Below are positions 24,321-50,066 of a stretch of DNA of 64,000 nt, in pieces. The notes beneath the pieces are model-generated. The model made no database searches. It was not told where the DNA came from and worked only from the letters and a program-made list of their open reading frames with translations. A program made the position numbers and the translations under genes. This DNA is from an uncultured bacterium (GTDB lineage Bacteria > Eisenbacteria > RBG-16-71-46 > CAIMUX01), in NCBI GenBank assembly GCA_964371055.1, contig CAYJLF010000001.1, forward strand, positions 277,639-341,638, read 5' to 3'. The stretch's first letter is position 1. Every line of letters starts with the position of its first letter.

Positions 24321-25457
24321 TCAGGTCGTCCGCGCCGCGCGCACTGCCTGCCGGAGCATCCAGATCACCAGCACGACCCCCGCGACGAAGAGGACAAGGA
24401 ACAGGATCAGCGGGCTCAGCTGCAGGTTGACCGGCTCGGCCGTCACGTCGACGTGGGGCGCCAGTTCCGCGTTCTGAACCACCTGCCGGCTGACCGCGTT
24501 CAGACCGAGGACCGCGAACTGGACCAGGAGGGCGGCGATCCCCCAGCTACGCGGCACTCCGCCGGCCTGGCGAGAGACCCGCCTCGCGAGGAGCAGGATC
24601 CAGAGCCAGGAGAACAAAGGCGCCAGCGCCGTCGCCAGGGTCAGCACGGCCAGCGGGGGCTCCAGCAGACGAGCGCGGAGCGCAGGATCCAGCGCGCCGA
24701 GGATGTACCACGATCCGGCCGCGACGGTCCAGATCACGCCAAAGAGGCCGAGGCGCCCGGCGAAGGTGACCGCCCAGCGACGGTACTCCACGCCCTGCGA
24801 TCCCGCGAACACCACGGTGTCGAACGCGATCCAGGCCGAGGTCGTCGTCAGGGCAAGGCCGAACATCAAAAGCCAGCGCGGCCAGAGGGTCGGATCGCCG
24901 AGGTTGAGCGCGGTGCCAAGCGGCGCCCCGCCGACCGAGGTCGCTTCCCACAGACCGGCCCAGGCGTCGATGCGGGTCATGAGGCTGAAGTTGTTCGCGA
25001 AGAGCCATCCGATCACAACCAGGAGGATGGACGCCACCCAGCCCGCGGCGCGACGCCAGGGAGGGAGCGCGCCGGCCCGGAGTCCCAGCGCATAGATGTA
25101 GACGCCGTAGTACGCGACCGTGAGCAGGAGGATGACCGAGAACCAGGGCCAGGCCATCAGGATGCCCGCCGGGTAGTACGCCTTGTAGTAGGCCACCTGG
25201 GTGAAGAGCAGGGGCACGATGCCAAGATTCACGCCGCAGGCGACGATGACCGGCATCGCGTTCATGATCCGTCCCCCGAGGAGGGACGCATGGTCGTTTC
25301 CGCGGCGCCGCAACAACAGCGCCACCGGAATCCCGGCGAACCAGAGATTCATCGGCAGCGCGTGGAGGGCGAAGCCCAGGACCTTGAAGAGCACCAGAAA
25401 CCAGAACGGAGCCGGGTAGCCGAGGGGATTGTCCGGAGCCATCAGGGCCGGGTTCAT
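24321..25457 (-). CDS. Cytochrome bd-like oxidase subunit II-like (CydB-like) polytopic membrane protein
   Basis: ~9 predicted TM helices and a size (378 aa) typical of CydB. Translationally coupled (4-nt overlap) to the upstream CydA-like gene. Weak direct sequence signature, so the assignment rests largely on context. Confidence 0.45.
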   Translation of the reverse strand: MNPALMAPDNPLGYPAPFWFLVLFKVLGFALHALPMNLWFAGIPVALLLRRRGNDHASLLGGRIMNAMPVIVACGVNLGIVPLLFTQVAYYKAYYPAGILMAWPWFSVILLLTVAYYGVYIYALGLRAGALPPWRRAAGWVASILLVVIGWLFANNFSLMTRIDAWAGLWEATSVGGAPLGTALNLGDPTLWPRWLLMFGLALTTTSAWIAFDTVVFAGSQGVEYRRWAVTFAGRLGLFGVIWTVAAGSWYILGALDPALRARLLEPPLAVLTLATALAPLFSWLWILLLARRVSRQAGGVPRSWGIAALLVQFAVLGLNAVSRQVVQNAELAPHVDVTAEPVNLQLSPLILFLVLFVAGVVLVIWMLRQAVRAARTT

Positions 25458-26914
25458 GGCCTGTCCCTCCCCACCTGCCCCGGCGGCCCGCCGAGATCAG
25501 GCAACCCCTTCGGGAACGGTTCCGAGATCGCCGCCAGGTACTCCTGCAACAGGGCCGCCTCTTCCGGAGTCCCCGCCCAGGGAGGCATGAAGAAATGCGC
25601 GCGCTCGGGATGCTCGACCACCAGCCGGATCATCTCTTCGCTCCAGCCGCGAGTGAGGTGCGCCACGGCCGACAAACCCGCCGTCGAAGCGTGGCAATCG
25701 TTGCAGTGGTATTGGAAGAGCACCTCCCCGACCTTCTTTCGATCGACCGGCGGTAACTCCAGGAGGGAGCGTTCATCGATCTTCAAGGTCCCGGCCGTCC
25801 CCGCTGTTCGCATCGACCCTGCCGCCCAGGCGGCGGCCCCCTCCCACGACACCGCCTGCGGGTAGCGCCGCGCGACCCAGGCCCGCGTCCAGACGCCCCC
25901 CTCCAGGTAGCCGCGTTCGCGCAGGGGCATCAGCTCGTCTTTGTAGATCTGGTTGCTCCAGACCACGTCGTAGACGATGTAAGGCTTGCGCACGGCTTCG
26001 CGGATGAACTCCCCCGTGCCGACGGCCGCCAGACCGAAGGAGAAGAGGAGGATCGAGAACCCGGGGCTGACCCAACCCGGGCGCCGGTAGGGACCGAGAT
26101 AGAGCATGACGAAGACGATCGCGGTGACCGCGAAGATGATGCTCATGAGGATGTTGAGCGGAGCGGCCGCCACCAGCGCGGCCTGGGCCGAATCCGGGAG
26201 CGCGGCGTACCACCAGAGGCCCCCGAGCGTGACCAGGGCCGCGCCGAGCAACCCGGGGCGCGCCGAGCGCCGGCCGATCATCTCGAGCAGACCGTCTCCC
26301 TTCAGGCGGAAGGACGCATGCAGGTAGACATAGAGGCTCGCCAGGAGGAGCGCCCCGCCGGTCCGCGCGATCGTCTGCGGGAGAAACTGCGGGTTCAGAA
26401 AGCCGGTCCAGAATCCGTGGTTCTCGGGCCAGCGCCCCGGATGAAGCATGAACGCGGTGATCCCGGTGATGAGGACCAGCGAGATCCACGCTGCGCCCGC
26501 ATAGATCCAACCGATCTGCACGTGGGTCCTCGGCGGCAGCCGGTCCCAGAAGTAGTAGAAGACGAAGGCCGCGACGACCTCGATCGCGAAGAAGACATAC
26601 TCCATCGCCCAGCCGAAGACGAAGGCATGGATCAAGGCCTCGGTCGCCACCGGCGAGGCGAGTCCGATCGTCCACCAGATGCCGACGCCGGTGATCGCGC
26701 CGTAGACCACGGTGAGCAGAATGAAGAACTTCGCGTGGTCCTTGAGATAACCGAGATAGTCCCGACGCCCCTCGCGCCGGGCGAAGCCGGTCTCGGCAGC
26801 GAGGAACATCCCGCCACCGACGGCGTACATCGAGACGAAGACATGCAGGACCGCGATGGCCGCGATCAGCATCGGGGCGGTCAGGAACGGAACGTGCCAC
26901 CACGGATAGTGCAT
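25454..26914 (-). CDS. Cytochrome bd-family oxidase subunit I-like (CydA-like) with a fused C-terminal monohaem cytochrome c domain, no Q-loop (OR-C-like)
   Basis: N-terminal TM helices with conserved His in the AVLHVFVSMYAVGGG region. IREAVRKPYIVY resembles the CydA GRQPWIVY motif. C-terminal soluble domain carries CNDCH (CXXCH) and a distal Met region. Confidence 0.55.
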   Translation of the reverse strand: MHYPWWHVPFLTAPMLIAAIAVLHVFVSMYAVGGGMFLAAETGFARREGRRDYLGYLKDHAKFFILLTVVYGAITGVGIWWTIGLASPVATEALIHAFVFGWAMEYVFFAIEVVAAFVFYYFWDRLPPRTHVQIGWIYAGAAWISLVLITGITAFMLHPGRWPENHGFWTGFLNPQFLPQTIARTGGALLLASLYVYLHASFRLKGDGLLEMIGRRSARPGLLGAALVTLGGLWWYAALPDSAQAALVAAAPLNILMSIIFAVTAIVFVMLYLGPYRRPGWVSPGFSILLFSFGLAAVGTGEFIREAVRKPYIVYDVVWSNQIYKDELMPLRERGYLEGGVWTRAWVARRYPQAVSWEGAAAWAAGSMRTAGTAGTLKIDERSLLELPPVDRKKVGEVLFQYHCNDCHASTAGLSAVAHLTRGWSEEMIRLVVEHPERAHFFMPPWAGTPEEAALLQEYLAAISEPFPKGLPDLGGPPGQVGRDRP

Positions 26915-26950
26915 CGATCCCTCCCGGTGCAGGCCGGCTCAGGCAAAGCG

Positions 26951-34188: not shown

Positions 34189-36621
34189 CTAGCTGTCGCG
34201 GAGCAGCGCCTCCAGCCTCTCCCGCTGCGGATCGGTCTTCCCGTCCGCTACGGTCGGAGTGATCTCCAGGGCGCGCCTCCAGATCGTCCGCGCGGACTCC
34301 ATGTTCCCCATCCGCGCGTGGGCTGTGCCGAGGTTGTAGAGGAGCCCCGGCAGGCGCTCGTGTATGCGCGCGGCGGCTTCGTACGCCCCCACGGCCTCGG
34401 CCAACCGCTCCTGTTCCAGGTAGATGTTGCCGATGTTGTAGAGGATCGTCGGGTTTCCGGGAGCGCGCGCCAGGGCGCCCTGATAGCAGGCGAGCGCTTC
34501 GTCGACGCGTCCGTCCTGGCGCAGGAACCAGGCCTTCCGGAAGAGAGCCTGGGGAAGGTGTGGATCGGCCTCCAGCGCCCCTTCGAAGCTGGCGCGAGCC
34601 TCGCGTCCCTGACCGCGGGCCAGTTGCAGCTCGCCCAGTCCGACCAGAGCTTCCGCCGCGTCCGGCTCGAGGTCGAGCGCCCGCCGGTAGAGGGCCTCGG
34701 CGGCGGCCGGGTTTCGCGCCGCGATCTCCAACTCAGCCAGGCCGATCAGCGGCTCGGTCGCCTGCGGCGTGCGGCGGACCTGCTCCTCGATGGCCCGCCG
34801 GGCCCCGGGGAGATCTCCCTGCCGACGCAGGATCGTCCCGACCAGCAGGTGGATTCCCTCCCGCTCTGGTTCGCTGACCGCGAGCGCCCGGGCGATCTTC
34901 AACGCCTCGTCGGTCCGTCCCGCCAGGAGCGCGGCCGTGGCGCGCAGCTGGTGCACCTCGAGCTCATCGGGGACCCGCCCGCCGTGCACGGCGATCAGCT
35001 GATCGAAAGCCGCCAGCGCTTCGCCGCCACGCCCCATCTGCACGAGGAGAGATCCCTTCATCCGCAACGCCGTCTGGTCATTCGCGTGCTCGGCCAGCAC
35101 GGAGTCGATCACGGCCAGCGCGGCGGGATAGCGTCGTTCGGCCGAGAGCGCGCGCGCCACGTCGATCCGGCGAAGTGCGTCGATCATGAGCTTGGGATCG
35201 ATCGGCTCGCCCGGCCGGACGGTCGCCATGCCCGCTCCCAGGTACCCCAGTGACCGCAGCCTCTCGGCCGTCTCCGCATCCATGGCGACCTGGCCCGCGT
35301 CACCGCCCGCATCCTTCTTGATGACCTGCTCGAGCGAGGCGGTCAGGGCCCCCACCACACGTCGCTCGCCGGTCACGCGATTCTGCAGTTCTCCGGGATC
35401 GGCGGCGCGATCGTAGAGCTCCGGCTGCGGCGCGCGGATGTACTTCCAACGCTCGGTCTCGAGGGCCCGCAGCTCGGCCAGGCCATGCTCGAGTTTCGGC
35501 GCGAGCGACTCGAGGTAGACCCAGGAGCGTCCTGGAGCATCCCCGGCCGCGACGGGGAGCAGGCTGAGGCCGTGACACGGAGGACGGGCCTCGTCCGCCA
35601 CGCCGGCCAGGTTCAGGATCGTCGGGAAGATGTCGGCCAGCGAGACCAGGGCATCCACGCGCCGGCCGCGCCAGGCCGCCTCCCGCCACGGTCCCGTCTC
35701 CGGCAGGCGAAGGAGGAGCGGCACGTCCTGCGTGGCCCCATAGATGAAATAGCCGTGGGTCCCTTCGCCGTGCTCGCCCCGGCTCTCCCCGTGGTCGGCC
35801 GCGACCACGACGGCGGTCCGGTCCAGGACTCCCATCTCCCGCAGGCCGTCGAGGAAGAGGCCGATCTGCGCATCCATGTAAGCGATCTCGCCAAGGTAAG
35901 GATCCGCGGGGTGCGCGCTGCGGTACGGCTCCGGCGGATCGTAGGGGAAGTGCGGATCGAAGTAGTGCAGCCAGAGCAGAAAGGGACCCTGCCGATGCTC
36001 GCGAACCCAGTCCAGGCCGAGCCCGGTCACCTCGGCGGCACGGCGCTGGGCCGCGTCGTTCTCGTTCACTCCACCCGCCTCCAGGAAGGCGTCGTCGTAG
36101 GTGTCGAATCCCTGGTTCAGCCCGAACTGGGCCGCAACCGGGAAGGCGCCGACGATCGCACCGGTGGCATACCCGCGCTCCCGGAGGATCTCGGCGAAGG
36201 TCTGCTTGTCGGGTCCGAGCACATGAGTGCCGTTGTTGCGCACGGCGTGCCGGTAGGGCCAGAGGCCGGTCATCATCGTCGCGTGGGACGGGAGGGTGAG
36301 CGGCGTCGGGCTCTTCGCCCGTTCGAAGAGAACTCCGTCGGCGGCCAGCGCGTCCAGATGCGGAGTCACGGCGGGACCCGAGCGCCGGTAGCAGGAGAGG
36401 TGATCCCGGCGGGTCGTATCCAGGGACAGGAGGATGATGTTCGGCGGCGGGCCATCAGGGACGGCCGCCCACGCGCCATACCGCCCGATTCTAGACTCCA
36501 GCGTGGAGAGCTCGGGCGCCGGGGCCTGCGGCGCGCAGCCCGGGGCCGAGAGCCCCATGAGCAGGATCGCCCCCAGAAGCCACGCGCCGGGCGACCGGAA
36601 GAGGCGGGAATGACTCCTCAC
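34189..36621 (-). CDS. Sulfatase-family (alkaline-phosphatase superfamily) enzyme fused to a C-terminal TPR-repeat domain. Start uncertain
   Basis: Sulfatase active-site region IILLSLDTTRRDHLSCY (the Cys that would be formylglycine-modified) ...TPLTLPSHATMMTG. More than eight TPR repeats at the C-terminus. Neither candidate start has a clear Shine-Dalgarno sequence. Confidence 0.7.
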   Translation of the reverse strand: MRSHSRLFRSPGAWLLGAILLMGLSAPGCAPQAPAPELSTLESRIGRYGAWAAVPDGPPPNIILLSLDTTRRDHLSCYRRSGPAVTPHLDALAADGVLFERAKSPTPLTLPSHATMMTGLWPYRHAVRNNGTHVLGPDKQTFAEILRERGYATGAIVGAFPVAAQFGLNQGFDTYDDAFLEAGGVNENDAAQRRAAEVTGLGLDWVREHRQGPFLLWLHYFDPHFPYDPPEPYRSAHPADPYLGEIAYMDAQIGLFLDGLREMGVLDRTAVVVAADHGESRGEHGEGTHGYFIYGATQDVPLLLRLPETGPWREAAWRGRRVDALVSLADIFPTILNLAGVADEARPPCHGLSLLPVAAGDAPGRSWVYLESLAPKLEHGLAELRALETERWKYIRAPQPELYDRAADPGELQNRVTGERRVVGALTASLEQVIKKDAGGDAGQVAMDAETAERLRSLGYLGAGMATVRPGEPIDPKLMIDALRRIDVARALSAERRYPAALAVIDSVLAEHANDQTALRMKGSLLVQMGRGGEALAAFDQLIAVHGGRVPDELEVHQLRATAALLAGRTDEALKIARALAVSEPEREGIHLLVGTILRRQGDLPGARRAIEEQVRRTPQATEPLIGLAELEIAARNPAAAEALYRRALDLEPDAAEALVGLGELQLARGQGREARASFEGALEADPHLPQALFRKAWFLRQDGRVDEALACYQGALARAPGNPTILYNIGNIYLEQERLAEAVGAYEAAARIHERLPGLLYNLGTAHARMGNMESARTIWRRALEITPTVADGKTDPQRERLEALLRDS

Positions 36622-36979
36622 CGCCAACCGCGGCTGAAAGCGCGTCGTTGCATCCACGTGGCAGCGACCCCAATCCCGGAAACGGCCGAGCGACAGGCCG
36701 TGGGACCCATCGCCGTCCGTCTGCCGTCGTTCGCGATTCCATTGGTTCTGCGTCCCATCCGGCCCGCGACCCTGACTCATCCTGATCAGGAGGGGCCATC
36801 GATCCCAACGATGCCGGATGTAGTCAACGATAGTTGAGATCATCGGTCTTGGCAAGTCCAAAGATCAGGTTTTGACTGATCAGCATCCTCGCCATTGGCG
36901 ATCCCAGAGCAGGGTATCTCGCTCTAACGGACCGAACGGTATTGAGTTACCTCATCTCAATGAACGGCGATGACCTCCG

Positions 36980-37462
36980 CTAGTAATCGAGCGTCAGGAT
37001 CCGGCCTTCCGTGAACGAGAAGAACTCATCTCGGTCAGCCAGCTTCACCCCCTCCACCAGGTCGGCCTCGGAGAATCCGGCCACTTTCAGGCAGGTCGGA
37101 CAGGCCCGCACGCGCACACCCTTCGCCAGCATGTTCCGCAACGACTCTTTCGCTCCCGGGAAGGGCTCGAGCGTGACGTCCGGGGCGTCCTTCGTCAGCA
37201 GGCCGACCGCCTTGATGTCACAGTAGACGAGGACGGGACGTCCACTCTCCGCCACCACTCCCGCCATCCTGAAGGCCATCAGCAGTCGATGGGGATCATC
37301 CACGCCATGGCTGACGTGCAGGAGAAGACCGTCCGCGGTGTTCGCCCCCGCGACGGCCTCGCCGGCGGGTGGCTCGTCCGCCGCCGAGCGCCCCTGGATC
37401 AGCGCTACGCTGGCCAGCACCACCATGGCCAGGCCGAGAACAACGATCCACCTCGTCCTCAT
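36980..37462 (-). CDS. DsrE/DsrF-like family protein with an N-terminal signal peptide
   Basis: MRTRWIVVLGLAMVVLASVALIQG signal, then a DsrE-like fold with VYCD and CPTC Cys motifs. AAGGAGAG Shine-Dalgarno sequence. TAG stop. Confidence 0.55.
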   Translation of the reverse strand: MRTRWIVVLGLAMVVLASVALIQGRSAADEPPAGEAVAGANTADGLLLHVSHGVDDPHRLLMAFRMAGVVAESGRPVLVYCDIKAVGLLTKDAPDVTLEPFPGAKESLRNMLAKGVRVRACPTCLKVAGFSEADLVEGVKLADRDEFFSFTEGRILTLDY

Positions 37463-37715
37463 CGATCTCTCCTTTCGCACCGCACCCGTGAACTCGCCGG
37501 ACATCGTCTCCTTCCCGGCGTCCTCTGCCGCAGGTACCACCGTGCCAGGGCGGGCGCAAGTCAGATCACGGGCGACGGCCTCGCCGGCTCCGACCCGTCA
37601 TCGGTTATACTCATCCTGGTCTCCAAACTTTCGCGTTGCGCTGGGATCGCGGCCCCGCCGCGATCGTCACAGGGCGACCCGTCCGCCACCCCCGCCGGTC
37701 ATCCCTGGAGGGACG

Positions 37716-40700
37716 ATGCTGTTCAGCCCGATCCGATTCCCCGGGAGGGGACTCTCCCGCACCTGCGTTTTGGTGCTCGGTCTTGTGACCTGGGGAACCG
37801 ACTCCGCCGTCTCCGCACCGACCAGGGTGATCCCCGCCGACGGTGCCCACGGGGCGCCGCCGCCGTCGGTCCGGGTTCTGGAATCCACGCCTGACCGGCT
37901 GAGCCTGAGCTTCGAGCTCCCCGTGCTCATCGAAGAAGTGGAGCGCAGCCCCGGTTCGACTCGTCACCGCCTCGCCATCCCGGAAGGCGGGGAACTCGGA
38001 CGGCCGGGGGGGCCGCTCCTGCCGGTCTTCACGCGCCTGGTCGCCATCCCGGACGAGGTCGGGGTGCAGTGCTCGTTCGTCAGCCTGGAGAGCGAAGATC
38101 GGGCCGCACCCACCGAGTTCTGGAGCGGGTCGGGCAGAGACGACACCGGTTCGGACCTCGTCGAGATCGGCCGTCCCGCGCTGATGCGGGGCCTGCGCGT
38201 CGTCCCGGTCCGCTTTCGACCCGTGACCTACGATCCGTCCCGAAACATCCTCCGGGTCCACTCCCGCCTCCGGGTCGACCTCCGATTCGAGGGAGAGGAC
38301 CTCGAGAATGCGCGCCCGTCCCGACCCGATGCGGCCGTCGCGCCAAGCTTCGACCGGCTCTGCCGGGAGTTGGTCCTGAACTATGGTGACCGCGAGAAGA
38401 GCGACCGCGCGGGAACCGGCACCTGGCTTCTCATCGCCCCGAACGATCCCGCCGTGACCAACCGCCTGCAGCCGCTGCTCGACTGGCGCAAGCGCCGGGG
38501 GATGCCGGTCCGGCTCGCCACGACCGCGGAGACGGGCACCTCGACCGCCCAGATCAAGTTCTACCTGCAGAACGCTTACCTCAACTGGCCCGTCCCGCCG
38601 GAATTCGTCGTTCTGGCCGGCGATGCCTCCGGCACCTACCAGATCCCGACCTGGTTCGAGGGGTTCTCCGGCTACGGCGGTGAGGGAGATCATCCTTACG
38701 CGCAGTTGGAGGGGAACGACGTCCTCGCCGACGTTCATCTCGGGCGCCTGTCGTTCAACACCCTGGGTGAACTCGAGACGATCGTGGCCAAGCTGGTCGG
38801 CTACGAGCGTGACCCGTACGTGGACGATGCGACCTGGTTCAAGCGCGCCTGCCTGACCGGCGATCCGAATGCCTCGGGCTGGAGCACGGTTCACGTGATG
38901 CAGTGGATCAAGGCGGGCCTGCGGCATCGCGGCTACGCGGAGATCGACACCATCTTCGGAGACCCGTTCGTCGCGCAGATGCAGACGGCGCTCAACCGCG
39001 GTGACACGATCTTCGCCTACCGGGGCTACTGGGGAATGAGCGGCTGGACCAACTCACTGACCTACGCGTTGCTGAACGGACGGAGACTGCCGTTTTCCAT
39101 CATCTCGACCTGCGGCACGGGATCCTTCGCCGCCGAGACCGCACTGTCCGAGGGATTCCTGCGGGCGGGATCGGCTACGACGCCGCGCGGCGCCATCGGA
39201 GCGATCGGCACCGCGACGCTCGGCACCCACACCCGCTTCAACAACACCCTGACCATGGGAATCATGCAGGGCCTGCTCTACGAAGAGACCTACCACCTCG
39301 GCGCCGCACTCAGCCGGGGCAAGCTCGAGCTCTTCCTCAACTACGACGGGAGCGACCAGGCAATCTACGTCGACATCTTCTCGCACTGGAACAACCTGAT
39401 GGGCGATCCGGCGACGGAGTGCTGGACCGGTTTCCCGGAGCTCCTCGCGGTCTCGCATCCCACCTCGATGGCGGTCGGGGATCACGCCCTGTCGGTGGGC
39501 GTCTCCGGCCCGGAGGGACCGGCGGCGGGCGCCCTGGTGTGCGCGTGGAAGACCGCGGGGCTCGGGGGGCCGGAGGTCTACCTCACCGCCCTGACGGATG
39601 AGGAGGGGAACTGCGAGCTGCCGGTCGCCCTGAGCCACGCCGGCGACCTGCTCCTCACCGTGACCAAGCACGACCATCGGCCTTATCTCGCCACCATCCC
39701 GGTCACGCCGCAACCGCTGGTCGTGGGATATCAGTCAGCGTTCGTGGACGACGACAACGCCGGCGAGAGCGCGGGGAACGGAGACGGCTGGGCCAGCCCG
39801 CTCGAGGCTTTGGAGCTGCGGATCCAGCTCAGGAACTTCGGCACGCAGCTCGCGCCCCAGGTGACGGCGGTTCTCTCCTCCGCGGACCCGTATGTCGCCA
39901 TCACCGACGACACGGAGGAGTTCGGCGATCTGCCCGGGGGGCAGTCCGCCTGGTGCGCGGACGACTTCGGTCTCACGATCGATCCCGATTGTCCGGACGG
40001 CCACCTCCTCACGTTGGAACTGCAGATCCTGTCGCCCCTCCAGGAGTGGCGCAACGTCTTCACGCTGCCGGTCGCTTCCGCGCGCCCGGCCGTGGTCGCC
40101 GCGCATGTGCACGACGACGGGAACGAGACCCTCGATCCCGGAGAATCGGCCGACTTCAGCGTGGTCCTGCGCAACGACGGGACGATTCCCGCCGCCAACA
40201 CCACCGTGGAGCTGACCTCCCTCAGCCCCTGGATCTCCGTCCTCGACAGCTCGGGTACCTTCGGGACGATCCCTCCCGGAGCCGAGGCGGAGAATCTGTC
40301 GGACCGTTTCCGTCTGCACGCTTCGCCTCAGACCTTTCCCGGGCACCAGGCCGAGTTCCTGCTCCTCACCCGCTTCAATGGAGGAGCGATCGACACGGCG
40401 TCGGTCGCGATCGAGGTGGGATCGCGCGCCTCGACCGATCCCGCCGGACCCGACCGGTACGGATACGTCGCCTTCGACGATACGGATACGGCGTACGAGG
40501 CGGCGCCGGAGTATGCGTGGATCGAACTCGATCCCGCGCTGGGCGGGAACGGCACGGAGCTGCCGCTGGGCGACTACGGGCACTACCAGGACAAGTCGGG
40601 GACCGTCGAGTTGCCCTTCGCCTTCCGCTTCTACGGGGAGGAGCGCACCCACGCGACGATCTGCTCGAATGGATGGATCGCCCTGACCCCGACCCATCTC

Positions 40701-42551
40701 ACCGTCTACCGGAACACGACCATCCCGGGCGCAGGCGCCCCAAGCGACCTCGTGGCGGTCTTCTGGGACGACCTCTACCAGGATGGAAGCTCCCGGGTCT
40801 TCCACGCGTACGACCCGGTCGGGCATCGATGGATCGTGGAGTGGAGCCGGTTCCGCAACCTCGAAGACGGCTCGCTCGAGACCTTCGAGGCGATCCTGCT
40901 CGACCCACGCTTTCACGACACCGACACGGGAGACGGCGCCATCCTCTTCCAGTACCAGACCATCGCCAATGTCGACGTGCTCGACGGCTACGCCACGGTC
41001 GGGATTCAGGACTTCGACCATACCGATGGCCTGCTCTACTCCTACTTCAATCAGTACGAGGCGGGCGCGGCGACGCTCGAGGCGGAGCGGGCGATCCTCT
41101 TCCAGCCGGTGATTCCCGGTCCGCGCGGCGGAGTCGAGGGGATCGTGCGGAACGAGTCGCTGGGAGGTCTGCCGCTGGCGGGAGCGCAGGTCTCGCTCTA
41201 TCCCGGAGGTCGGACCTTCCCCACCGCCGCGGACGGATCGTTCGAGGGGGGCGTCGCCACCGGCGCCTACCTGGCGGTGGCCAGCCACGCCGGGTTCGCC
41301 CCCGACAGCGTGCTCGATGTCGTCGTGAGCGAGGGCGAGATCGTGCACCTCGAACTCGCTTTGATGGACGACGCAGGACCGACGATCTCCGCGGTCACGG
41401 AACCCGGGCACACGAGCGACACGGCGGGACCCTACAACCTGGAAGCCACGGCCAGCGACCCCAGCGGCGTCGCCTCGGTGGGTCTCTTCTATCGCCTCGA
41501 CGGAGGTGAGTGGCACGAAGTGCCGATGACCGGCGCCGGCCCGACCTACGCGGCCGGGATCCCCGGGGCGCCGGCCGGCACCGAGGTCGAGTATTACATC
41601 TCCGCGATCGACGGCGCGGGACTGGGAGCGTGCAGTCCACCCGGCGCTCCGGCCGAAGCCTACACACTTCTGATCACGACCGTCGCCTACAGCTACGCTG
41701 GCGAGGGCCCCTCCGACGCGGGCTGGACGATCGGCCTGCCGGAGGATGACGCCCTGCGCGGCATCTGGACTCGGGCCGACCCGCTCGCGTCCTGGTTTGG
41801 GGGAGAGCTCATTCAACCGGACGACGACCACACGCCGGATCCCGGCATCCGATGCCTGGTCACGGCCAACGTGATCCCCGGCGGGACCGACCCGGAGGGG
41901 GATGTCGATGGTGGCTGCACGACCGTGCTCAGCCCGGTGATCGACCTGAGCACGGCGACTTCCGCCTGGGTGGAGTACTGGAGATGGTTCGGCGAAATGG
42001 GGGACGCCACCGACGATGAACTGGCGGTCGACGTGTCCAACGACGGCGGAGTCTCCTGGGCTCCGCTGGAGCGCGTGCCGGAGAGCGATCCGTCCTGGCG
42101 GCAGGTCACCCGCGATCTCGGCGCCATCCTCCCTTTGACCGGGCAGATGCGCCTGCGCTGCCGCGCGTGCGATCTCGGCGAGCCGACGCAGCTCGAAGCA
42201 GCCTGGGACGATCTTTCCATCGAGGTGTTCGTGCCGGGGCCAACGTCCGCCTTAGGGTCCGTCTCGGCCGGCGCGATCGACGCCCTGGTGCCGGGGCGGC
42301 CGAATCCCTTCGCCGGCATGACCACGATCCGCTACCACACCGCGAAGACGGGAAAAGCGAGCCTCGCCATCTTCGATGTGCACGGCCGGGTGATCCGGCG
42401 CCTGTGGGAAGGGCCCTGCCCTGCGGGCGAACACCAGGCGAGCTGGGACGGCCGCGACACGCAGGGATCCGCCGCCCCGGCCGGGGTCTACTTCGTCCGT
42501 CTCGAGACCGCCGGGTATCGGGGCGAAAGCAAGCTCCTGGTCGTCCGGTGA
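37716..42551 (+). CDS. Very large (1611-aa) secreted peptidase-C25 (gingipain)-family homolog with multiple downstream Ig/jelly-roll-like domains and a FlgD-Ig-like CTD. The catalytic Cys is conserved, but the catalytic His position reads Tyr
   Basis: FVVLAGD...GNDVLADVHLGRLS...VGYERD, AYRGYWGMSGW and LPFSIISTCGTGSF align to RgpB YVLLIGD...GNDHYNEVFIGRFS...IHYERN, ANYTGHGSETAW and LPFIFDVACVNGDF. Start trimmed to MLFSPIRF (ATG at 37716, GGAGGG Shine-Dalgarno sequence). Confidence 0.8.
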   Translation: MLFSPIRFPGRGLSRTCVLVLGLVTWGTDSAVSAPTRVIPADGAHGAPPPSVRVLESTPDRLSLSFELPVLIEEVERSPGSTRHRLAIPEGGELGRPGGPLLPVFTRLVAIPDEVGVQCSFVSLESEDRAAPTEFWSGSGRDDTGSDLVEIGRPALMRGLRVVPVRFRPVTYDPSRNILRVHSRLRVDLRFEGEDLENARPSRPDAAVAPSFDRLCRELVLNYGDREKSDRAGTGTWLLIAPNDPAVTNRLQPLLDWRKRRGMPVRLATTAETGTSTAQIKFYLQNAYLNWPVPPEFVVLAGDASGTYQIPTWFEGFSGYGGEGDHPYAQLEGNDVLADVHLGRLSFNTLGELETIVAKLVGYERDPYVDDATWFKRACLTGDPNASGWSTVHVMQWIKAGLRHRGYAEIDTIFGDPFVAQMQTALNRGDTIFAYRGYWGMSGWTNSLTYALLNGRRLPFSIISTCGTGSFAAETALSEGFLRAGSATTPRGAIGAIGTATLGTHTRFNNTLTMGIMQGLLYEETYHLGAALSRGKLELFLNYDGSDQAIYVDIFSHWNNLMGDPATECWTGFPELLAVSHPTSMAVGDHALSVGVSGPEGPAAGALVCAWKTAGLGGPEVYLTALTDEEGNCELPVALSHAGDLLLTVTKHDHRPYLATIPVTPQPLVVGYQSAFVDDDNAGESAGNGDGWASPLEALELRIQLRNFGTQLAPQVTAVLSSADPYVAITDDTEEFGDLPGGQSAWCADDFGLTIDPDCPDGHLLTLELQILSPLQEWRNVFTLPVASARPAVVAAHVHDDGNETLDPGESADFSVVLRNDGTIPAANTTVELTSLSPWISVLDSSGTFGTIPPGAEAENLSDRFRLHASPQTFPGHQAEFLLLTRFNGGAIDTASVAIEVGSRASTDPAGPDRYGYVAFDDTDTAYEAAPEYAWIELDPALGGNGTELPLGDYGHYQDKSGTVELPFAFRFYGEERTHATICSNGWIALTPTHLTVYRNTTIPGAGAPSDLVAVFWDDLYQDGSSRVFHAYDPVGHRWIVEWSRFRNLEDGSLETFEAILLDPRFHDTDTGDGAILFQYQTIANVDVLDGYATVGIQDFDHTDGLLYSYFNQYEAGAATLEAERAILFQPVIPGPRGGVEGIVRNESLGGLPLAGAQVSLYPGGRTFPTAADGSFEGGVATGAYLAVASHAGFAPDSVLDVVVSEGEIVHLELALMDDAGPTISAVTEPGHTSDTAGPYNLEATASDPSGVASVGLFYRLDGGEWHEVPMTGAGPTYAAGIPGAPAGTEVEYYISAIDGAGLGACSPPGAPAEAYTLLITTVAYSYAGEGPSDAGWTIGLPEDDALRGIWTRADPLASWFGGELIQPDDDHTPDPGIRCLVTANVIPGGTDPEGDVDGGCTTVLSPVIDLSTATSAWVEYWRWFGEMGDATDDELAVDVSNDGGVSWAPLERVPESDPSWRQVTRDLGAILPLTGQMRLRCRACDLGEPTQLEAAWDDLSIEVFVPGPTSALGSVSAGAIDALVPGRPNPFAGMTTIRYHTAKTGKASLAIFDVHGRVIRRLWEGPCPAGEHQASWDGRDTQGSAAPAGVYFVRLETAGYRGESKLLVVR

Positions 42552-43842: not shown

Positions 43843-45339
43843 CTACTTCAACAGCAGCATCTTCCGGCTGCCAAACTCCGCGCCGGCGCGGACCGCATAG
43901 AAGTAAATCCCGGCGGGCAGCGGCCGCCCGTCGTCGCCGGTGCCGTCCCAGAGGTAGGTGAACTCACCCGGAGTCTCGTGCACGAGCACGGCGGAACGCA
44001 CGATCCGCCCGGCGGCATCGTGGATCCGCACGGCGACGCTTCCCGCCCGGTCGATCGCGTAACCGATGGAGGTTTCCCGATCGAACGGGTTGGGGCTGCT
44101 GCCGCGTAACCTCAGCCCGCCCGCACGAACGCCGGCCCCGATCGATTCATCCACCTGGCCGTCAGGCACCGAGGAGGAGGGGTTGCGGCGGTAGAGCACG
44201 ATGTGGCCCTGCAGGATGTAAATCGGCGGCGTGTGGCCGTTGTAGTTGTAGTTGCAGTCCGTGCAGGTCTGGCCGTTGACACACTCCGGGTTCGTCGGAC
44301 GGCAGTAGTTGACGTACGGCTGGACGTTGTAGTCGAAGGTGTTGTCCTCGCCCGGGAGGATGGCGCCGGTCAGGTCGACCTCCCACGCCGGGGCGGCGTC
44401 CCCGGGGCACCAGCCGGCGCGGTTATAGGTCCACGTTCCTCCCTGCGGGCTGCAGCTGTTCTGCGCGCAGTCGCCGCGCCACAGGTTGTGCTGGAAGACG
44501 GTGCCGTTGGCGGTGACCTGATGCCACCGGTTGCAGAACTCGGCGCAGTTGGCCGTGTTCCCCTGCCCGTGACCGGTGCAGTAGACGCGCCCCTTCACGG
44601 CATCGGGCGCTCCGTCGATCGGCACCGTCAAAGGCGCGAAGTGATTCTCGATCGGGTCATCGGGGTCGCCGTAGAGCGTCCAGTAGCTGGACCAGAGGTT
44701 GATCACCTCGTACGGGATCATGTCGGGTTCGCCGTGGATGAAGGCAAAGTCGATCGTGACAACCCACCCGCGCGTACCGCCGATCCAGGTCTCGATGTAG
44801 TTGCTCAGGAGCACGTCGCCGCGCAGCAGCTGCATGTAGTCGGTGACATCGATCTCCCAGGTGCAGCTCACCGGACGAGGCGGCGGCGTGATGTCGTAGG
44901 GCGTCACGACTCTCCCGATCTCGATCCACTCCAGTTCGCGCCCGCCGTCCGCTCCGATCCGGCCGGTCTCGCGGCCGAGGCGGAGATAGCCGATCCGGTC
45001 CCACGGATCGCAGTCGCCAGGCGACTCGGGACACTCGATCCGGTAGAACATGAGGACTTTCGAGACGTGAAGCGAAGTGTCAGGGAAGGTGAAGGTCGAG
45101 TCGTGCGACGTCGCCCAGTTGTAGAAGTCTCGGTCGTAGGTACGCACCCAGGTGGTATCGGGATCCTCGGCCCGGGCCGGGCCGACGACCGCGGCGAAGA
45201 GGACAAGGAGGGAGAGCAACCCGACCGTGAGGGTCCCTCGGACGAGGTCGACGGCCCTTTCCCTTCGCGGGTGAACGCGACCGGCCGGGGGCGCGACGCT
45301 CGAGCAGACCATCAAGGCGGACCGGACGCTGTGGCGCAT
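43843..45339 (-). CDS. Peptide-N4-(N-acetyl-beta-glucosaminyl)asparagine amidase F (PNGase F) homolog with a FlgD-Ig-like CTD
   Basis: TFTFPDTSLHVSKVLMFYRIECPESPGDCDPWDRIGYL...EIGRVVTPY...EIDVTDYMQLL...YIETW parallels PNGase F TFTFPADVTTVKTIKMFIKNECPNKTCDEWDRYANVYV...EIGRFITPY...EIDVTDFKSLL...YTETW. The catalytic D (CDPWDR), E (AEFCNRWH) and E (NRAGWCPGD) equivalents are present. Start at MRHSV, with GGAGG. Confidence 0.8.
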   Translation of the reverse strand: MRHSVRSALMVCSSVAPPAGRVHPRRERAVDLVRGTLTVGLLSLLVLFAAVVGPARAEDPDTTWVRTYDRDFYNWATSHDSTFTFPDTSLHVSKVLMFYRIECPESPGDCDPWDRIGYLRLGRETGRIGADGGRELEWIEIGRVVTPYDITPPPRPVSCTWEIDVTDYMQLLRGDVLLSNYIETWIGGTRGWVVTIDFAFIHGEPDMIPYEVINLWSSYWTLYGDPDDPIENHFAPLTVPIDGAPDAVKGRVYCTGHGQGNTANCAEFCNRWHQVTANGTVFQHNLWRGDCAQNSCSPQGGTWTYNRAGWCPGDAAPAWEVDLTGAILPGEDNTFDYNVQPYVNYCRPTNPECVNGQTCTDCNYNYNGHTPPIYILQGHIVLYRRNPSSSVPDGQVDESIGAGVRAGGLRLRGSSPNPFDRETSIGYAIDRAGSVAVRIHDAAGRIVRSAVLVHETPGEFTYLWDGTGDDGRPLPAGIYFYAVRAGAEFGSRKMLLLK

Positions 45340-45569
45340 GACGTTTCCTCCGCGGAACGGATGGTGAAGGAGGCCTCTCGGCCGGCGCGTGCTCGATGGG
45401 GGGGAGCGCGCGTCCCGGCACACGTTGGCGGAATCCTAGCCCGCCGGAGGCGCCGGGGCAATGGTGGTCCATGCCCGCTGGCCCTTGCTCTCCTTCCGGC
45501 TCCGTGCGATACTTGGTCCCGCGTTCCGCGATGGTCGCCTGATGAACCGGGATGCGAAGGACGTGTGAA

Positions 45570-46787
45570 ATGAAGTGGATCGGTTCGCTTCGGATCGCGA
45601 CCTGGGCCGCGGCCATGATCCTGGGTTCATGGGCTTCGCCCGCCTGGAGCTACGAAGGGGCCGTCGTCGTCTGGGGATCCAACAGCCACGGCCAACTCGA
45701 CGTCCCGGCGCCCGACAGCGGCTTCGTCGCGATCTCCGCGGGCGACTTCCATAGCCTCGGGCTCACCGCCGACCGAACCATCGTGGCCTGGGGATGGAAC
45801 GACTACGGGCAGTGCGAGGTGCCGGTTCCCAATGCCCGGTTTGTGGCGATCGATGCCAGCGGCGTCTACAACCTGGCCCTCAGAGAGGACGGAAGCATCG
45901 CTCCCTGGGGACTCAACAGCTACGGGCAGTGCGACGTGCCGGAGCCGAACCTCGGGTTCCGTGCCATCGCGGCCGGGGGGCTTCACGGTCTCGCGCTCCG
46001 GGACGACGGTTCGGTCGCCGGTTGGGGCTACAACGACTACGGACAATGCGATCCCCCGACGCCGAACTCCACGTTCGTCAAGATCTCGGCCGGGTCACTG
46101 CACAGCCTGGGGCTGAGGGCCGACGGAACGATCTCGGCCTGGGGCGCCGACTACTATGGGCAATGCGCGATCCCGGCGCCGAACAGCGGGTTCGTGGCAG
46201 TGGCGGCGGGTGGAGAGCACAGCCTCGGCCTGAGGGCCGACGGAGTGGTTGTCGCCTGGGGACTGAACAACTTCGGGCAATGCACGGTGCCGCCCCCCAA
46301 CTCCGGCTTCGTGGCGATCGCCGCCGGCCAGCAATTCAGCCTGGGAATCAAGTCCGACGGCACCATCATCGGATGGGGGTACAACAACCACGGTCAGTGC
46401 AACCCATCCCAGCCGAACAGCGGTTTCGTTTCCGTCTCGGCTGGGTACGCCCACGGGATGGGACTGCGCCTCCACCCCGCGGGCGTCCGGGACGAGGTCA
46501 CGGGAGCCACCGGGGTCACGCTCCTGCCCAACCACCCGAATCCGTTCCAGCCGACAACGACGATCCGGTTCGAGCTGCTCGACGCGCGATGGGCGCTGCT
46601 CCAGGTCTACGACATCCAGGGGCACCTCGTGCGCACCCTGGTCTCCGGTCCCGTGTCGCCCGGACGGCACGAAATGACCTGGGACGGTTCGTCGGACCAA
46701 GGCAGGGTTGTGCCGGCAGGCGTCTATCTCTGCCGGCTTCAGGCACGCGGGGTGGAGCGGACCCGGTCCATGGTCCTGACCAGATAG
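45570..46787 (+). CDS. RCC1-repeat (regulator of chromosome condensation-like) beta-propeller protein with a FlgD-Ig-like CTD
   Basis: Seven repeats of the form WGxNxYGQCxVPxPNxGFVAIAAGxxHSLGLRxDG. Signal peptide MKWIGSLRIATWAAAMILGSWASPAWS. CTD NHPNPFQPTTTIRFELL...LQVYDIQGHLVRTL. Confidence 0.75.
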   Translation: MKWIGSLRIATWAAAMILGSWASPAWSYEGAVVVWGSNSHGQLDVPAPDSGFVAISAGDFHSLGLTADRTIVAWGWNDYGQCEVPVPNARFVAIDASGVYNLALREDGSIAPWGLNSYGQCDVPEPNLGFRAIAAGGLHGLALRDDGSVAGWGYNDYGQCDPPTPNSTFVKISAGSLHSLGLRADGTISAWGADYYGQCAIPAPNSGFVAVAAGGEHSLGLRADGVVVAWGLNNFGQCTVPPPNSGFVAIAAGQQFSLGIKSDGTIIGWGYNNHGQCNPSQPNSGFVSVSAGYAHGMGLRLHPAGVRDEVTGATGVTLLPNHPNPFQPTTTIRFELLDARWALLQVYDIQGHLVRTLVSGPVSPGRHEMTWDGSSDQGRVVPAGVYLCRLQARGVERTRSMVLTR

Positions 46788-46797
46788 GAGCGATCGG

Positions 46798-47400
46798 CTA
46801 AAGCTCCTTCGCGTGCTCCGCGAGATACTTCGCGACGCCGTCGGGCGAGCCCTTCATTCCGGCCTTCCCCTTGTTCCAGCCGGCCGGGCAAACCTCGCCG
46901 TGCTTCTCGGTGAACTGCAAAGCGTCGATCATGCGGATCGCCTCGTCGATGTTACGCCCGAGGGAGAGGTTGTTCACCACCTGGTGCTGCACGATCCCGT
47001 CCCGGTCGATCAGGAACGTGCCGCGCAGAGCGACGGCATCACCGATCAGCACGTCATAGTCGCGCGCGATGCTCTTGGAGAGGTCGGCGACGAGGGGGAA
47101 GCGGACGTGTCCGAGACCGCCCTTCTCCACCGGCGTGTTCTTCCAGGCCAGGTGACTGAACTGGGAGTCGACGCTCACGCCGATGACCTCGACGTTCCGC
47201 TCCTTGAACTCCTCCAGCCGGTGGTCGAAGGCAAGGATCTCAGTGGGGCAGACGAAGGTGAAGTCGAGGGGATAGAAGAAGACGAGGGCGTACTTCCCCT
47301 TGGTGTAGCTGCGGAAATTGAACGTCTCGTTGATCTCGTTGTCGCCCATCACGGCCTTGGCGGTGAAATCGGGGGCGGGCTTGCCGACCAGCACGGACAT
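46798..47400 (-). CDS. ahpC: Typical 2-Cys peroxiredoxin (AhpC/Tsa1 type)
   Basis: Peroxidatic Cys in FTFVCPTE. Resolving Cys in GEVCPAGW. GAGGAGG Shine-Dalgarno sequence. Confidence 0.9.
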   Translation of the reverse strand: MSVLVGKPAPDFTAKAVMGDNEINETFNFRSYTKGKYALVFFYPLDFTFVCPTEILAFDHRLEEFKERNVEVIGVSVDSQFSHLAWKNTPVEKGGLGHVRFPLVADLSKSIARDYDVLIGDAVALRGTFLIDRDGIVQHQVVNNLSLGRNIDEAIRMIDALQFTEKHGEVCPAGWNKGKAGMKGSPDGVAKYLAEHAKEL

Positions 47401-47569: not shown

Positions 47570-48238
47570 CTACGCGCCCGCCTGGCGGACCGCCTGGATG
47601 AAGACCTCGGCCGGCTGGGCACCGACGAAGTCGATCGTATCGTTGACCACGATCTTCGGGACGCCGGAGACGGAGTACTTCTGGATCATGTCGGGGAACT
47701 CGCTCACCTCGACGCAATCGGCCGTGATGCGCTCGTGAAGGATCGCCAGCTTGTGGGCCAACCTGGCCGCACGTGGGCAATAGGGTCAGGTCGGGGTCCC
47801 GAAGACCTGGATGTGGACATCCTTCCGCAGCACGCCGATCTCGTCGGCCACCTTGGGCGAAAGGTCGGTGGTGCCGTTTGCGACATCGACCAGGCTTTCG
47901 ATCAGGCTGGAGAACTCGTAGCCGGTCGGGATCCCGACGAACCGGACCCGCCCCTTCGCCTTGCCGCTCAGGGCGAAGGTCGGGATCCGGACGACGCCCA
48001 TCTCCCGGGCGCGATCGGCCTCGGAGACGAAGTCGTGCACGCGCAGCGTGATCTGACCGGAGAGGGCCGCGACCTCTTGCAGAAGTTGCGTCGTCTCACG
48101 GCAGTACTCGCACTCCTGGATCGGCATCTCCCCGGGGGAGGCCCCCTGGGTGAAGTGGTCGATCACGACCGGGTTCTTCAACTGCTTGGCGAAGTGATCG
48201 CGGATCGCCTTGCTGTCTTTCTCGGAAATCATCGGCAT
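47570..48238 (-). CDS. Two-domain thioredoxin-fold protein-disulfide oxidoreductase (Pyrococcus PDO / glutaredoxin-like family). The first active site is CEYC. The second reads U-P-Y-C, with an in-frame TGA (putative selenocysteine) replacing the first Cys of CPYC
   Basis: Track ORFs 47786..48238 and 47570..47761 are in the same frame, separated by one TGA plus 8 codons. The joined protein ...VHIQVFGTPT-TGA-PYCPRAARLAHKLAI... aligns to P. furiosus PDO ...VRILVFVTPTCPYCPLAVRMAHKFAI..., so the TGA falls exactly on the first Cys of the CPYC redox motif. Confidence 0.65.
47745..47788 (-). ncRNA. Putative bacterial SECIS element (intragenic mRNA hairpin immediately 3' of the in-frame UGA)
   Basis: The mRNA reads UGA CCC UAU UGC CCA C then GUGCGGCC-AGGUU-GGCCCAC. 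This gives a 7-bp GC-rich stem with one bulged C and a G/U-containing apical loop. The hairpin begins ~13 nt after the UGA, as in characterised bacterial SECIS elements. Confidence 0.45.
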
Positions 48239-48483: not shown

Positions 48484-49098
48484 ATGCCGGTCTATACGCT
48501 TCCGGACCTCAAGTACGACCATGGCCAGCTGGAGCCCCATCTGTCGGCGCGCATCCTGCAGCTCCACCATGACAAGCACCATCTCGCCTATGTCAACGGC
48601 GCGAACGAGACCCTGGAGAAGCTCGAAGAGGCGCGCAAGAGCGGGAACTTCGGTGCGATCAACGCGTTGGAGAAGAGCCTCGCGTTTCACATCTCGGGGC
48701 ACAAGCTCCACTCGATTCTCTGGACCAACATGAAGCCGCACGGCGGGGGCGATCCCACGGGCGACGTGAAGGGGCAGATCGAGGCGGACTTCGGCGGCTT
48801 CGAGGCGTTCCGCAAGCACTTCAACGCCGCCAGCGCCGGCGTCCAGGGCTCGGGCTGGGGCGTTCTCGCGTGGGAGCCGCTCGCCGGCCGTCTGATCATC
48901 AACCAGGTCTACGACCACCAGGGCGAGCACGCGCAGGGCAGCGTCCCGATCCTGGTCTGCGACGTCTGGGAGCACGCCTACTACCTGCAGTACGAGAACC
49001 GCCGCCCCGAGTGGATCACAGCTTTCTGGAACGTCATCAACTGGGACGACGTGAACCGCCGGTTGACCGAGGCGAAGCAGGGCAAATTCAGCATGTAA
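48484..49098 (+). CDS. sodA: Fe/Mn-family superoxide dismutase
   Basis: Metal ligands in LHHDKHH, ...D-VWEHAYY. AAGGAG Shine-Dalgarno sequence. Start trimmed to MPVYTLPDLKY. Confidence 0.9.
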   Translation: MPVYTLPDLKYDHGQLEPHLSARILQLHHDKHHLAYVNGANETLEKLEEARKSGNFGAINALEKSLAFHISGHKLHSILWTNMKPHGGGDPTGDVKGQIEADFGGFEAFRKHFNAASAGVQGSGWGVLAWEPLAGRLIINQVYDHQGEHAQGSVPILVCDVWEHAYYLQYENRRPEWITAFWNVINWDDVNRRLTEAKQGKFSM

Positions 49099-49193: not shown

Positions 49194-50066
49194 CTACTTC
49201 CCCGTTGCGGGCTCCGCGGCCGGTTCAGGTTTCCCCGCGTCTCCGGCCGGCTCCGTCCCGGCCGCCTTCTTCTTCTCGATGAGCGCCTTGATCTCGGCCG
49301 GCGGATCGAAGCGACCGTCCGGGATCGACACATTGTGCGCCACGCTGTCGGTGACGAACTCCATGACCTGCATCCCGTTCATGACCGATTGCTTCATCCG
49401 GAACGGGATCTGCAAGCCATCGACCTCGCGGTAGTCGGAGAAGAACACGTCGACCGGGAATGTTCCCTGGTCGGTCGTGATCTTCATCGCGGCCTTGACC
49501 TGCATCCCGCTCTCGCGGTCGAACCACCAGGTCTCGGGCGCTCCCTGGTTGGGGGTCATCGTGACCTTCCAGGCCGGCCGGCCGTCGATCGTGTCCACCC
49601 CCGCAGTCTCCGCCGTCTTGAACCACGCGCGCCAGTTGCTGAGCCCCTCGAAGTCAGCTTCCCGCCGAGCGAGCGTGAGCTCTTCCCCATCCTTGAGTTT
49701 GGAGCCGGACATGGCATTCGACTCCCAGTACCAGGTGCCATCGCCGCCGGACTGCATCGGTCCCAGCGCCTCCGACTCCATCATCGTGAAGGTGGAGGCG
49801 GGTCGAGCGGACCAGGAGGTCATGGTCGCCTTGAGGCCCATCGCCGGGATCTCCATCGAACCCTTCATCCAGCGGTTCTCGAGCCTCTTCATCGCGTCCG
49901 CTCCGCCCGCGGCCTGGACCGCCTTCTGGATGATCGTCTCACCCGGGGGCAGTTCATCCGCCGACCCCGGGGCCGCCCACCCCGTGCCGAGGACCGCGAT
50001 CGCAAATCCGATCGCGATGACGCCTGCTCGCCGACTCCACCCCATCCGCCCGCGCGTTCCCTTCAT
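49194..50066 (-). CDS. Hypothetical secreted protein (signal peptide; possibly a LolA-like / outer-membrane lipoprotein-sorting fold)
   Basis: Signal peptide MKGTRGRMGWSRRAGVIAIGFAIAVLGTGWAAPGSA. Lys/Glu-rich acidic C-terminal tail. No confident family. Confidence 0.4.
   Translation of the reverse strand: MKGTRGRMGWSRRAGVIAIGFAIAVLGTGWAAPGSADELPPGETIIQKAVQAAGGADAMKRLENRWMKGSMEIPAMGLKATMTSWSARPASTFTMMESEALGPMQSGGDGTWYWESNAMSGSKLKDGEELTLARREADFEGLSNWRAWFKTAETAGVDTIDGRPAWKVTMTPNQGAPETWWFDRESGMQVKAAMKITTDQGTFPVDVFFSDYREVDGLQIPFRMKQSVMNGMQVMEFVTDSVAHNVSIPDGRFDPPAEIKALIEKKKAAGTEPAGDAGKPEPAAEPATGK

Follow-up and report, generated by a model that had tools for sequence, protein, structure and literature searches.

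Gene, reading frame and predicted product

The window, by which we mean the whole 64 kb stretch of DNA that was analyzed, carries on its minus strand a 222-codon frame (48238..47570) that is interrupted only once in the ORF listing and its translation, by a TGA at 47786-47788. The features of the locus are as follows.

47570..48238, minus strand: predicted selenoprotein CDS, complete; 222 codons, of which one is the UGA (Sec151), followed by the TAG stop at 47570-47572; two-thioredoxin-fold protein resembling protein disulfide oxidoreductase (PDO) and the AhpF N-terminal domain
48101..48112, minus strand: domain 1 motif C43-E-Y-C46, from the translation
47786..47788, minus strand: in-frame UGA, putative U151, with which the UPYC redox motif opens; TGA invariant in 15/15 Sec-clade sequences
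47777..47788, minus strand: predicted domain 2 redox motif U151-P-Y-C154, equivalent to the CPYC of Pyrococcus PDO; the 1J08/1A8L alignment puts the motif on 'TPTCPYCP'
47753..47772, minus strand: SECIS-like hairpin GUGCGGCCAGGUUGGCCCAC, starting 13 nt after the UGA
46798..47400, minus strand: typical 2-Cys peroxiredoxin of 200 aa with FVCPTE and EVCPA motifs (Pfam AhpC-TSA, Redoxin and 1-cysPrx_C), downstream on the same strand
48484..49098, plus strand: Fe/Mn superoxide dismutase (SOD) of 204 aa (Pfam Sod_Fe_N and Sod_Fe_C), divergently transcribed

The first ORF (48238..47786, minus strand) encodes 150 aa, MPMISEK...VHIQVFGTPT, with the TGA at 47786-47788 as its stop. Eight in-frame codons, PYCPRAAR (47785..47762, minus strand), separate this stop from the second ORF (47761..47570, minus strand), which begins with a TTG at 47761, encodes 63 aa and ends with the TAG at 47570-47572. 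Read through the TGA, the product has 222 residues, MPMISEK...FGTPT-U-PYCPRAARLAHK...RQAGA. An earlier note on this DNA had described two minus-strand ORFs sharing a frame and parted by a TGA plus eight codons, with CEYC in domain 1 and the TGA on the first Cys of the domain 2 CxxC motif (FGTPT-U-PYCP), and the ORF listing and translation bear out both points. C43 and C46 are invariant among the 15 aligned N-terminal fragments.

Automatic gene calling yields a 150-aa and a 63-aa fragment at most loci, and the gene is annotated as two fragments in every assembly examined, with one source naming the first fragment 'AhpF'. The second call differs at the orthologous loci L022 and L025, where a shorter ORF is reported, although L022 nevertheless keeps the TTG. 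Because the second-ORF calls vary between assemblies, automatic annotation of this gene is inconsistent. The catalytic UxxC site is regained once the two fragments are joined.

For assignment to a family, the 222-aa product was searched against the NCBIfam profiles with U replaced by C. It matched the equivalog model TIGR02187.2 at 247.4 bits, against a cutoff of 185 bits, with residues 6-219 covering positions 2-208 of the 209-position profile; this model has the short name PDO_seleno_TRX and the product name 'protein disulfide oxidoreductase'. Pfam recognized Thioredoxin_3 twice, together with Glutaredoxin and Thioredoxin in the C-terminal half. Solved PDO structures (1J08, 1A8L, 2YWM, 2AYT and 2HLS) aligned over their full length with E = 1e-39 to 6e-25, and residues 1-217 aligned to the Pyrococcus structures 1J08 (E = 1e-39) and 1A8L (E = 2e-36), the latter in agreement with the colinearity with Pyrococcus furiosus PDO that had been proposed earlier. 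By these alignments, the predicted product is composed of two tandem thioredoxin-fold domains collinear with PDO. Three other assignments were rejected: full-length AhpF (TIGR03140, 73.3 bits against a cutoff of 502.9, covering only profile positions 27-184 of 515), classical glutaredoxin (GRX_bact, 31.4 bits against 90) and classical thioredoxin (TIGR01068, 28.9 bits against 96.8).

Conservation of the TGA and its cysteine counterparts

No fewer than 23 contigs, drawn from separate ENA assemblies and up to 434 kb long, carry the exact 150-aa ORF, and the same split is found in all of them. Among the best 120 matches in a search of 5.8 billion proteins, 14 are exactly 150 aa long, are 64-98% identical and end in VHIQVFGTPT, while the rest are full-length proteins of 215-259 aa with 43-56% identity. 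The two named genome matches are either Candidatus Eisenbacteria metagenome-assembled genomes (MAGs) or an unclassified MAG whose gene order is the same, and the organism of the window therefore probably falls within or close to this lineage.

In the DNA of the orthologous loci, a TGA occupies the Sec codon of every one of the 15 distinct Sec-clade sequences, down to 44% protein identity, and the peptide that follows in this clade reads P-[Y/H]-C-P-[R/G/A]-A-A-R-[L/M]-A-H. Two more distant relatives, L014 (labelled Candidatus Eisenbacteria) and L019, have TGC at the same codon. An alignment of orthologs at this position, proposed in the earlier note as a check, thus returned TGA throughout the Sec clade and TGC outside it, and the occurrence of both triplets at one codon is the Sec/Cys pairing that would be expected of a selenoprotein family.

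A second Sec clade is represented by L017 (position 1056) and L018 (position 687), from metagenome contigs Ga0222749_10034396 and Ga0210384_10075689; its members are 44% identical and read VFTTPS-U-PYCPAAARMAH. The TGA and the core of the downstream hairpin are common to this clade and the window gene, which could mean either that the Sec forms descend from one ancestor or that SelB constrains the sequence.

Translation across the UGA

The TGA is retained within an uninterrupted 222-codon frame (230 codons in L016) by 13 distinct full-length orthologs, whose N-terminal 150 aa are 64-84% identical, and none of the 13 has a second stop or a frameshift. By Nei-Gojobori counting over all pairs, purifying selection is stronger after the TGA (codons 152-222, pN/pS 0.26) than before it (codons 1-150, pN/pS 0.35). 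In the four codons immediately downstream of the UGA, the only variation is synonymous or an exchange of Y and H (CCC/CCA/CCG, TAT/TAC/CAC/CAT, TGC/TGT and CCA/CCC/CCG), which implies that they are read as P-[Y/H]-C-P. These comparisons of sequence show that translation continues through the UGA at 47786-47788 and does not end there.

Within the window, TGA is the stop of 13 of the 22 confident genes and the commonest stop codon among them. Genome-wide reassignment of UGA is accordingly rejected, and the use of TGA as an ordinary stop elsewhere in the window points to site-specific recoding and not to a variant genetic code.

A conserved hairpin downstream of the UGA

A hairpin, GUGCGGCC-AGGUU-GGCCCAC, had been proposed to start 13 nt after the UGA and is indeed found there, at 47772..47753. 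In its predicted fold, GUG-C-GGCCA / GGU / UGGCC-CAC, eight pairs and a single bulged C are capped by a three-base GGU apical loop, which begins 22 nt downstream of the UGA. The same hairpin lies within the minimum-free-energy fold of five of six Sec-ortholog segments, the exception being L020, whereas neither the sequence nor the folding of the Cys-form segments revealed a comparable hairpin in the two TGC relatives, L014 and L019. No Rfam family matched anywhere in the window at gathering thresholds, so that no curated RNA family covers the hairpin. The folding energy of the 61-nt window region is not significant alone (z = -0.68 against shuffled controls), and the z-scores of the 61-nt segments, whether of the Sec or the Cys form, lie between -0.8 and +1.3; as a hairpin this short in coding sequence of 68% GC cannot be judged by energy, conservation was used instead.

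The hairpin columns are nearly invariant in the 15 distinct sequences, while flanking third positions vary freely, and synonymous diversity is 0.22 in codons 152-159 compared with ~0.48 elsewhere. Three rare codons are conserved within the hairpin, CGT, AGG and TTG, which make up 7%, 5% and 6% of the Arg and Leu codons in the window genes. Standard pairs fill 96.7% of the pair cells, compared with 25-47% in controls slid by 1-3 columns. There is one compensatory change, from C-G to U-A in L025, and one change from G-C to G-U in L016, and the apical loop has an invariant GG with a third base that varies among U, C and A. The observed covariation was reached by 23 of 500 column shuffles, which is modest support stemming from a single double change, and the conserved AARLAH peptide could be responsible in part for the conservation of the hairpin. 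The more distant clade of L017 and L018, at 44% identity, keeps the hairpin core GCGGCC-AGGAUG-GCC. The earlier note had named a lack of conservation or covariation in the hairpin as grounds against its reading; the element is conserved at synonymous sites, shows the one compensatory change and is absent from the TGC forms.

A template of eight pairs with a GG loop occurs nine times in 128,000 window positions, and it lies at the distance of a bacterial SECIS after only two of the 1334 TGA triplets of the window, one of which is the Sec codon. Bacterial SECIS elements as sought by bSECISearch are reportedly stem-loops just 3' of the UGA within the coding region, with a G-containing apical loop and a distance from UGA to loop of roughly 16-37 nt. 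By these criteria, and by analogy with fdhF, the position, stem and G-rich apical loop of the hairpin fit a candidate bacterial SECIS.

Selenocysteine as the most probable reading of codon 151

Taken together, the conserved TGA, the intact frame and purifying selection, the hairpin that accompanies TGA and not TGC, and the Cys homologs favor the reading put forward in the earlier note, that of a Sec-containing PDO/glutaredoxin-like protein. We regard it as highly probable that, as a whole, UGA151 encodes Sec by means of the downstream SECIS hairpin and that the product is a PDO-like reductant of the adjacent peroxiredoxin. Under this explanation, the 20-nt hairpin located 13 nt downstream would act as a bacterial SECIS that recruits SelB with Sec-tRNA(Sec) to the ribosome, and the Sec thus incorporated would be the nucleophile that opens the C-terminal UPYC motif.

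The alternative that survives best is read-through independent of Sec, in which a near-cognate tRNA (Cys, Trp or Arg) or some other suppressor would produce the full-length protein without selenium, and the hairpin would either stimulate read-through or merely reflect the encoded peptide. The evidence for translation downstream of the UGA is compatible with this alternative, as it does not extend to the identity of residue 151, and the sequence available, consisting of the window and related loci, contains no Sec machinery. ARAGORN found no tRNA-Sec, or tRNA of any kind, in 13 related loci or in the 64 kb window, a small part of a genome whose source contig alone is 434 kb long; Pfam detected no SelA, SelB or SelD domains in 20 window ORFs or the central 20 kb of this same small part of the genome; and selA, selB, selD and tRNA-Sec were likewise absent from ~150 kb of orthologous loci. 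We nevertheless consider Sec-independent read-through improbable, as the UGA coincides precisely with the catalytic Cys codon of a CxxC motif for which TGC homologs exist, a hallmark of Sec/Cys pairs, and the hairpin agrees in position and in its G-rich loop with a bacterial SECIS and is kept together with its rare codons. In addition, the same family is catalogued as a selenoprotein (PMC13188914), and TGA is the main true stop in the genome.

Genuine termination at the UGA is less probable again, and we regard it as very unlikely. It would leave a 150-aa N-terminal domain protein and possibly a separate 63-aa thioredoxin-like protein initiated at the TTG at 47761, that is, a split gene, and this is how the gene callers interpret most of the loci. 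However, the 63-aa product would be without a CxxC motif, and the stretch of eight codons that separates the TGA from the TTG, encoding P-[Y/H]-C-P-R-A-A-R, varies synonymously and is under purifying selection with a pN/pS of 0.18. The TTG itself (window 47759-47761) is replaced by CTG in L015 (522-569) and CTA in L025 (571-618), neither of which is a start codon, and by ATG in L017 (1056-1103); the first two replacements indicate that a separate downstream protein is not conserved. Furthermore, no drift in frame between the two parts has occurred in the 13 orthologs. As for a pseudogene or a sequencing or assembly error at the Cys codon, a single base change would suffice to turn TGC or TGT into TGA, but this can be dismissed with near certainty given the identical TGA on the independently assembled contigs, its retention by every one of the 15 distinct Sec-clade orthologs, even at 44% identity, the absence of secondary stops and frameshifts, and the strong purifying selection downstream.

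The exact placement of the TGA had been offered earlier as an argument against a pseudogene or sequencing error, with frameshifts or independent stops in orthologs named as signs of decay, and the contigs, the ortholog TGA, the intact frames and the downstream selection now refute that alternative. Sequencing error, a pseudogene and a split gene are excluded or very unlikely, and the gene is a well-supported selenoprotein candidate that the earlier note identified correctly.

Gene neighborhood and proposed function

The location of the gene between a 2-Cys peroxiredoxin and an Fe/Mn SOD, which the earlier note had recognized, is upheld by Pfam matches of the called genes. The order of the Sec-containing PDO gene and the 2-Cys peroxiredoxin gene is conserved at L007, L008, L009, L011 and L022, and the divergent SOD neighbor is conserved at all of the longer orthologous loci. 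The N-terminal domain of AhpF passes electrons to AhpC, and archaeal PDO, together with thioredoxin reductase, reduces Bcp/Prx enzymes. Based on this knowledge of the family and the conserved gene order, the adjacent 2-Cys peroxiredoxin is, by analogy, the likely electron acceptor of the PDO-like protein. A thioredoxin-reductase-like flavoprotein encoded elsewhere would reduce the PDO-like protein, whose selenenylsulfide/selenol-thiol couple would then pass reducing equivalents to the adjacent peroxiredoxin, with Sec supplying a nucleophile presumed to be more reactive than Cys, and the two proteins may thus form a peroxide-detoxifying module beside the SOD. The conserved arrangement of SOD, Sec-containing PDO and 2-Cys peroxiredoxin suggests a testable path of electrons from the PDO to the peroxiredoxin.

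Directly beyond the SOD, several of the orthologous loci encode a ~500-aa Redoxin/AhpC-TSA/Thioredoxin_8 protein (L007:1346-2866, L009:7406-8902, L011:3091-4626 and L022:1460-2962, all on the minus strand). The equivalent position in the window (49194..50066, minus strand) encodes a 290-aa protein without a Pfam match, followed by an S41 peptidase.

Other genes in the window

A scan for in-frame TGAs with coding-like flanks, covering the window and all loci, detected no second selenoprotein candidate. Three window TGAs, at 14794, 28172 and 42549, are each preceded and followed by coding-like sequence of the same frame, none of them on a redox motif, and they look like ordinary boundaries between genes: an ABC transporter and a SpoIIE-FHA phosphatase, an fn3 protein and a DUF3078 protein, and a C25 peptidase and a beta-helix protein, respectively.

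FlgD Ig-like domains form the C-terminal ends of several large proteins of secreted type (window 2..913, 37227..42548 and 43843..45423), a set that includes a C25 peptidase protein of ~1600-1770 aa, an N-glycanase_C protein and a partial ORF at the start of the window. The recurrence of these ends points to a common C-terminal sorting signal in the organism. The 411-aa protein encoded at 45552..46787 (plus strand) contains approximately seven tandem repeats of ~50 aa with a consensus like G..HSLGL..DG.I.AWG.N..GQC.VP.PN, which by eye resemble an RCC1-type beta-propeller, and its C-terminal tail is like the FlgD_ig sorting domains of its neighbors; the gene-call table (L001 11452-12669) contains no Pfam match for this protein. 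An 891-codon ORF at 34192..36864 (minus strand) fuses a sulfatase domain (residues 141-422) to a C-terminal TPR array (residues ~700-890). Lastly, the N-terminal half of a 494-codon ORF at 25457..26938 (minus strand) weakly matches the profile of cytochrome bd oxidase subunit I (positions 5-220 of 418, E = 4e-13), and together with the adjoining ORF at 24324..25496, which has no Pfam match, it may represent a divergent bd-like oxidase pair.

Lineage and significance

We found no relevant report in the literature of Sec use in Candidatus Eisenbacteria, and the locus provides a first sequence-level hint of it. What appears to be new here is the apparent host lineage, an Eisenbacteria-like clade, along with the description of a compact SECIS and of the conserved SOD/PDO/peroxiredoxin context; no new selenoprotein family and no new recoding mechanism are added. 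A broader interpretation can be offered tentatively, as a possibility that we do not yet favor: that Eisenbacteria are a previously unreported Sec-using lineage, that the Sec form arose from a Cys-PDO ancestor, of which the TGC form that survives in another Eisenbacteria MAG (L014) would be a trace, and that the neighboring 2-Cys peroxiredoxin has in this protein its own, selenium-dependent reductant within a conserved SOD/PDO/peroxiredoxin oxidative-stress module. This interpretation would also include a very small SECIS whose core, GCGGCC-AGGNUG-GCC, is common to the 44% identical sequences of L017 and L018 from other metagenomes.

Comparison with known systems

The window protein resembles the PDOs of P. 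furiosus and P. horikoshii (1A8L and 1J08) in having two thioredoxin folds, an N-terminal CxxC motif and a second motif in which the 'TPT-C-PYCP' of the archaeal proteins aligns to 'TPT-U-PYCP'. It differs from them in the predicted use of Sec where they use Cys, in an N-terminal motif that is CEYC and not CQYC, and in an insertion of 5-6 residues after residue 30 that is absent from the Pyrococcus PDOs, whose domain 2 contains short insertions of its own.

The N-terminal domain of AhpF from Salmonella and E. coli (1ZYN, 1HYU and 4O5Q) is a homologous tandem thioredoxin-fold module to which the match is weaker (E = 1e-10 to 4e-09, residues 47-200). As with AhpF, the window gene is associated with a 2-Cys peroxiredoxin, whose gene it adjoins, and from this adjacency the same role as an electron shuttle is likely. 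Unlike AhpF, which is ~520 aa long, the window protein is free-standing, with 222 aa and no FAD/NAD(P)H reductase domains, and Sec would replace Cys in its C-terminal motif while the CxxC of its N-terminal fold is kept.

A UxxC motif on a thioredoxin fold, with Sec in place of the nucleophilic Cys, is known from a thioredoxin of Treponema denticola and a glutaredoxin of Clostridium sp. OhILAs (PMC13188914). These are single-domain proteins of other families (PF00085 and PF00462), in contrast to the two-domain window protein. The closest relationship is with a published selenoprotein family, like PDO and the AhpF N-terminal domain and with UxxC (PMC1794560, PMC9312934, PMC13188914, PMC11227280), that the literature indexes under 'AhpF N-terminal domain'. 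The view in the earlier note that the PDO-like family had not been described with Sec was therefore mistaken, as the family is already catalogued and the model itself is named PDO_seleno_TRX. Fujita et al. (2007) recovered 'Glutaredoxin-like, TGA, CHY_0740' (PMC1914089), and a 2024 study described four Asgard archaeal (Sifarchaeia/Borrarchaeales) members that probably evolved from Cys homologs (PMC11227280).

Judged by the family model, the domain architecture, UxxC, the Cys homologs, the hairpin and the intact frame, the window gene is a predicted member of this already catalogued selenoprotein family. The published members, compared here by description, have in common with the window protein the TIGR02187.2 model, a single Sec in UxxC, Cys homologs and a hairpin in the coding region directly after the UGA (PMC1794560, PMC9312934, PMC13188914, PMC11227280, PMC1914089). 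Known Sec members include those of Carboxydothermus hydrogenoformans (CHY_0740 / ABB15282.1) and Symbiobacterium thermophilum and the four Asgard sequences, and the window protein differs from all of these in its host lineage, which is apparently Candidatus Eisenbacteria.
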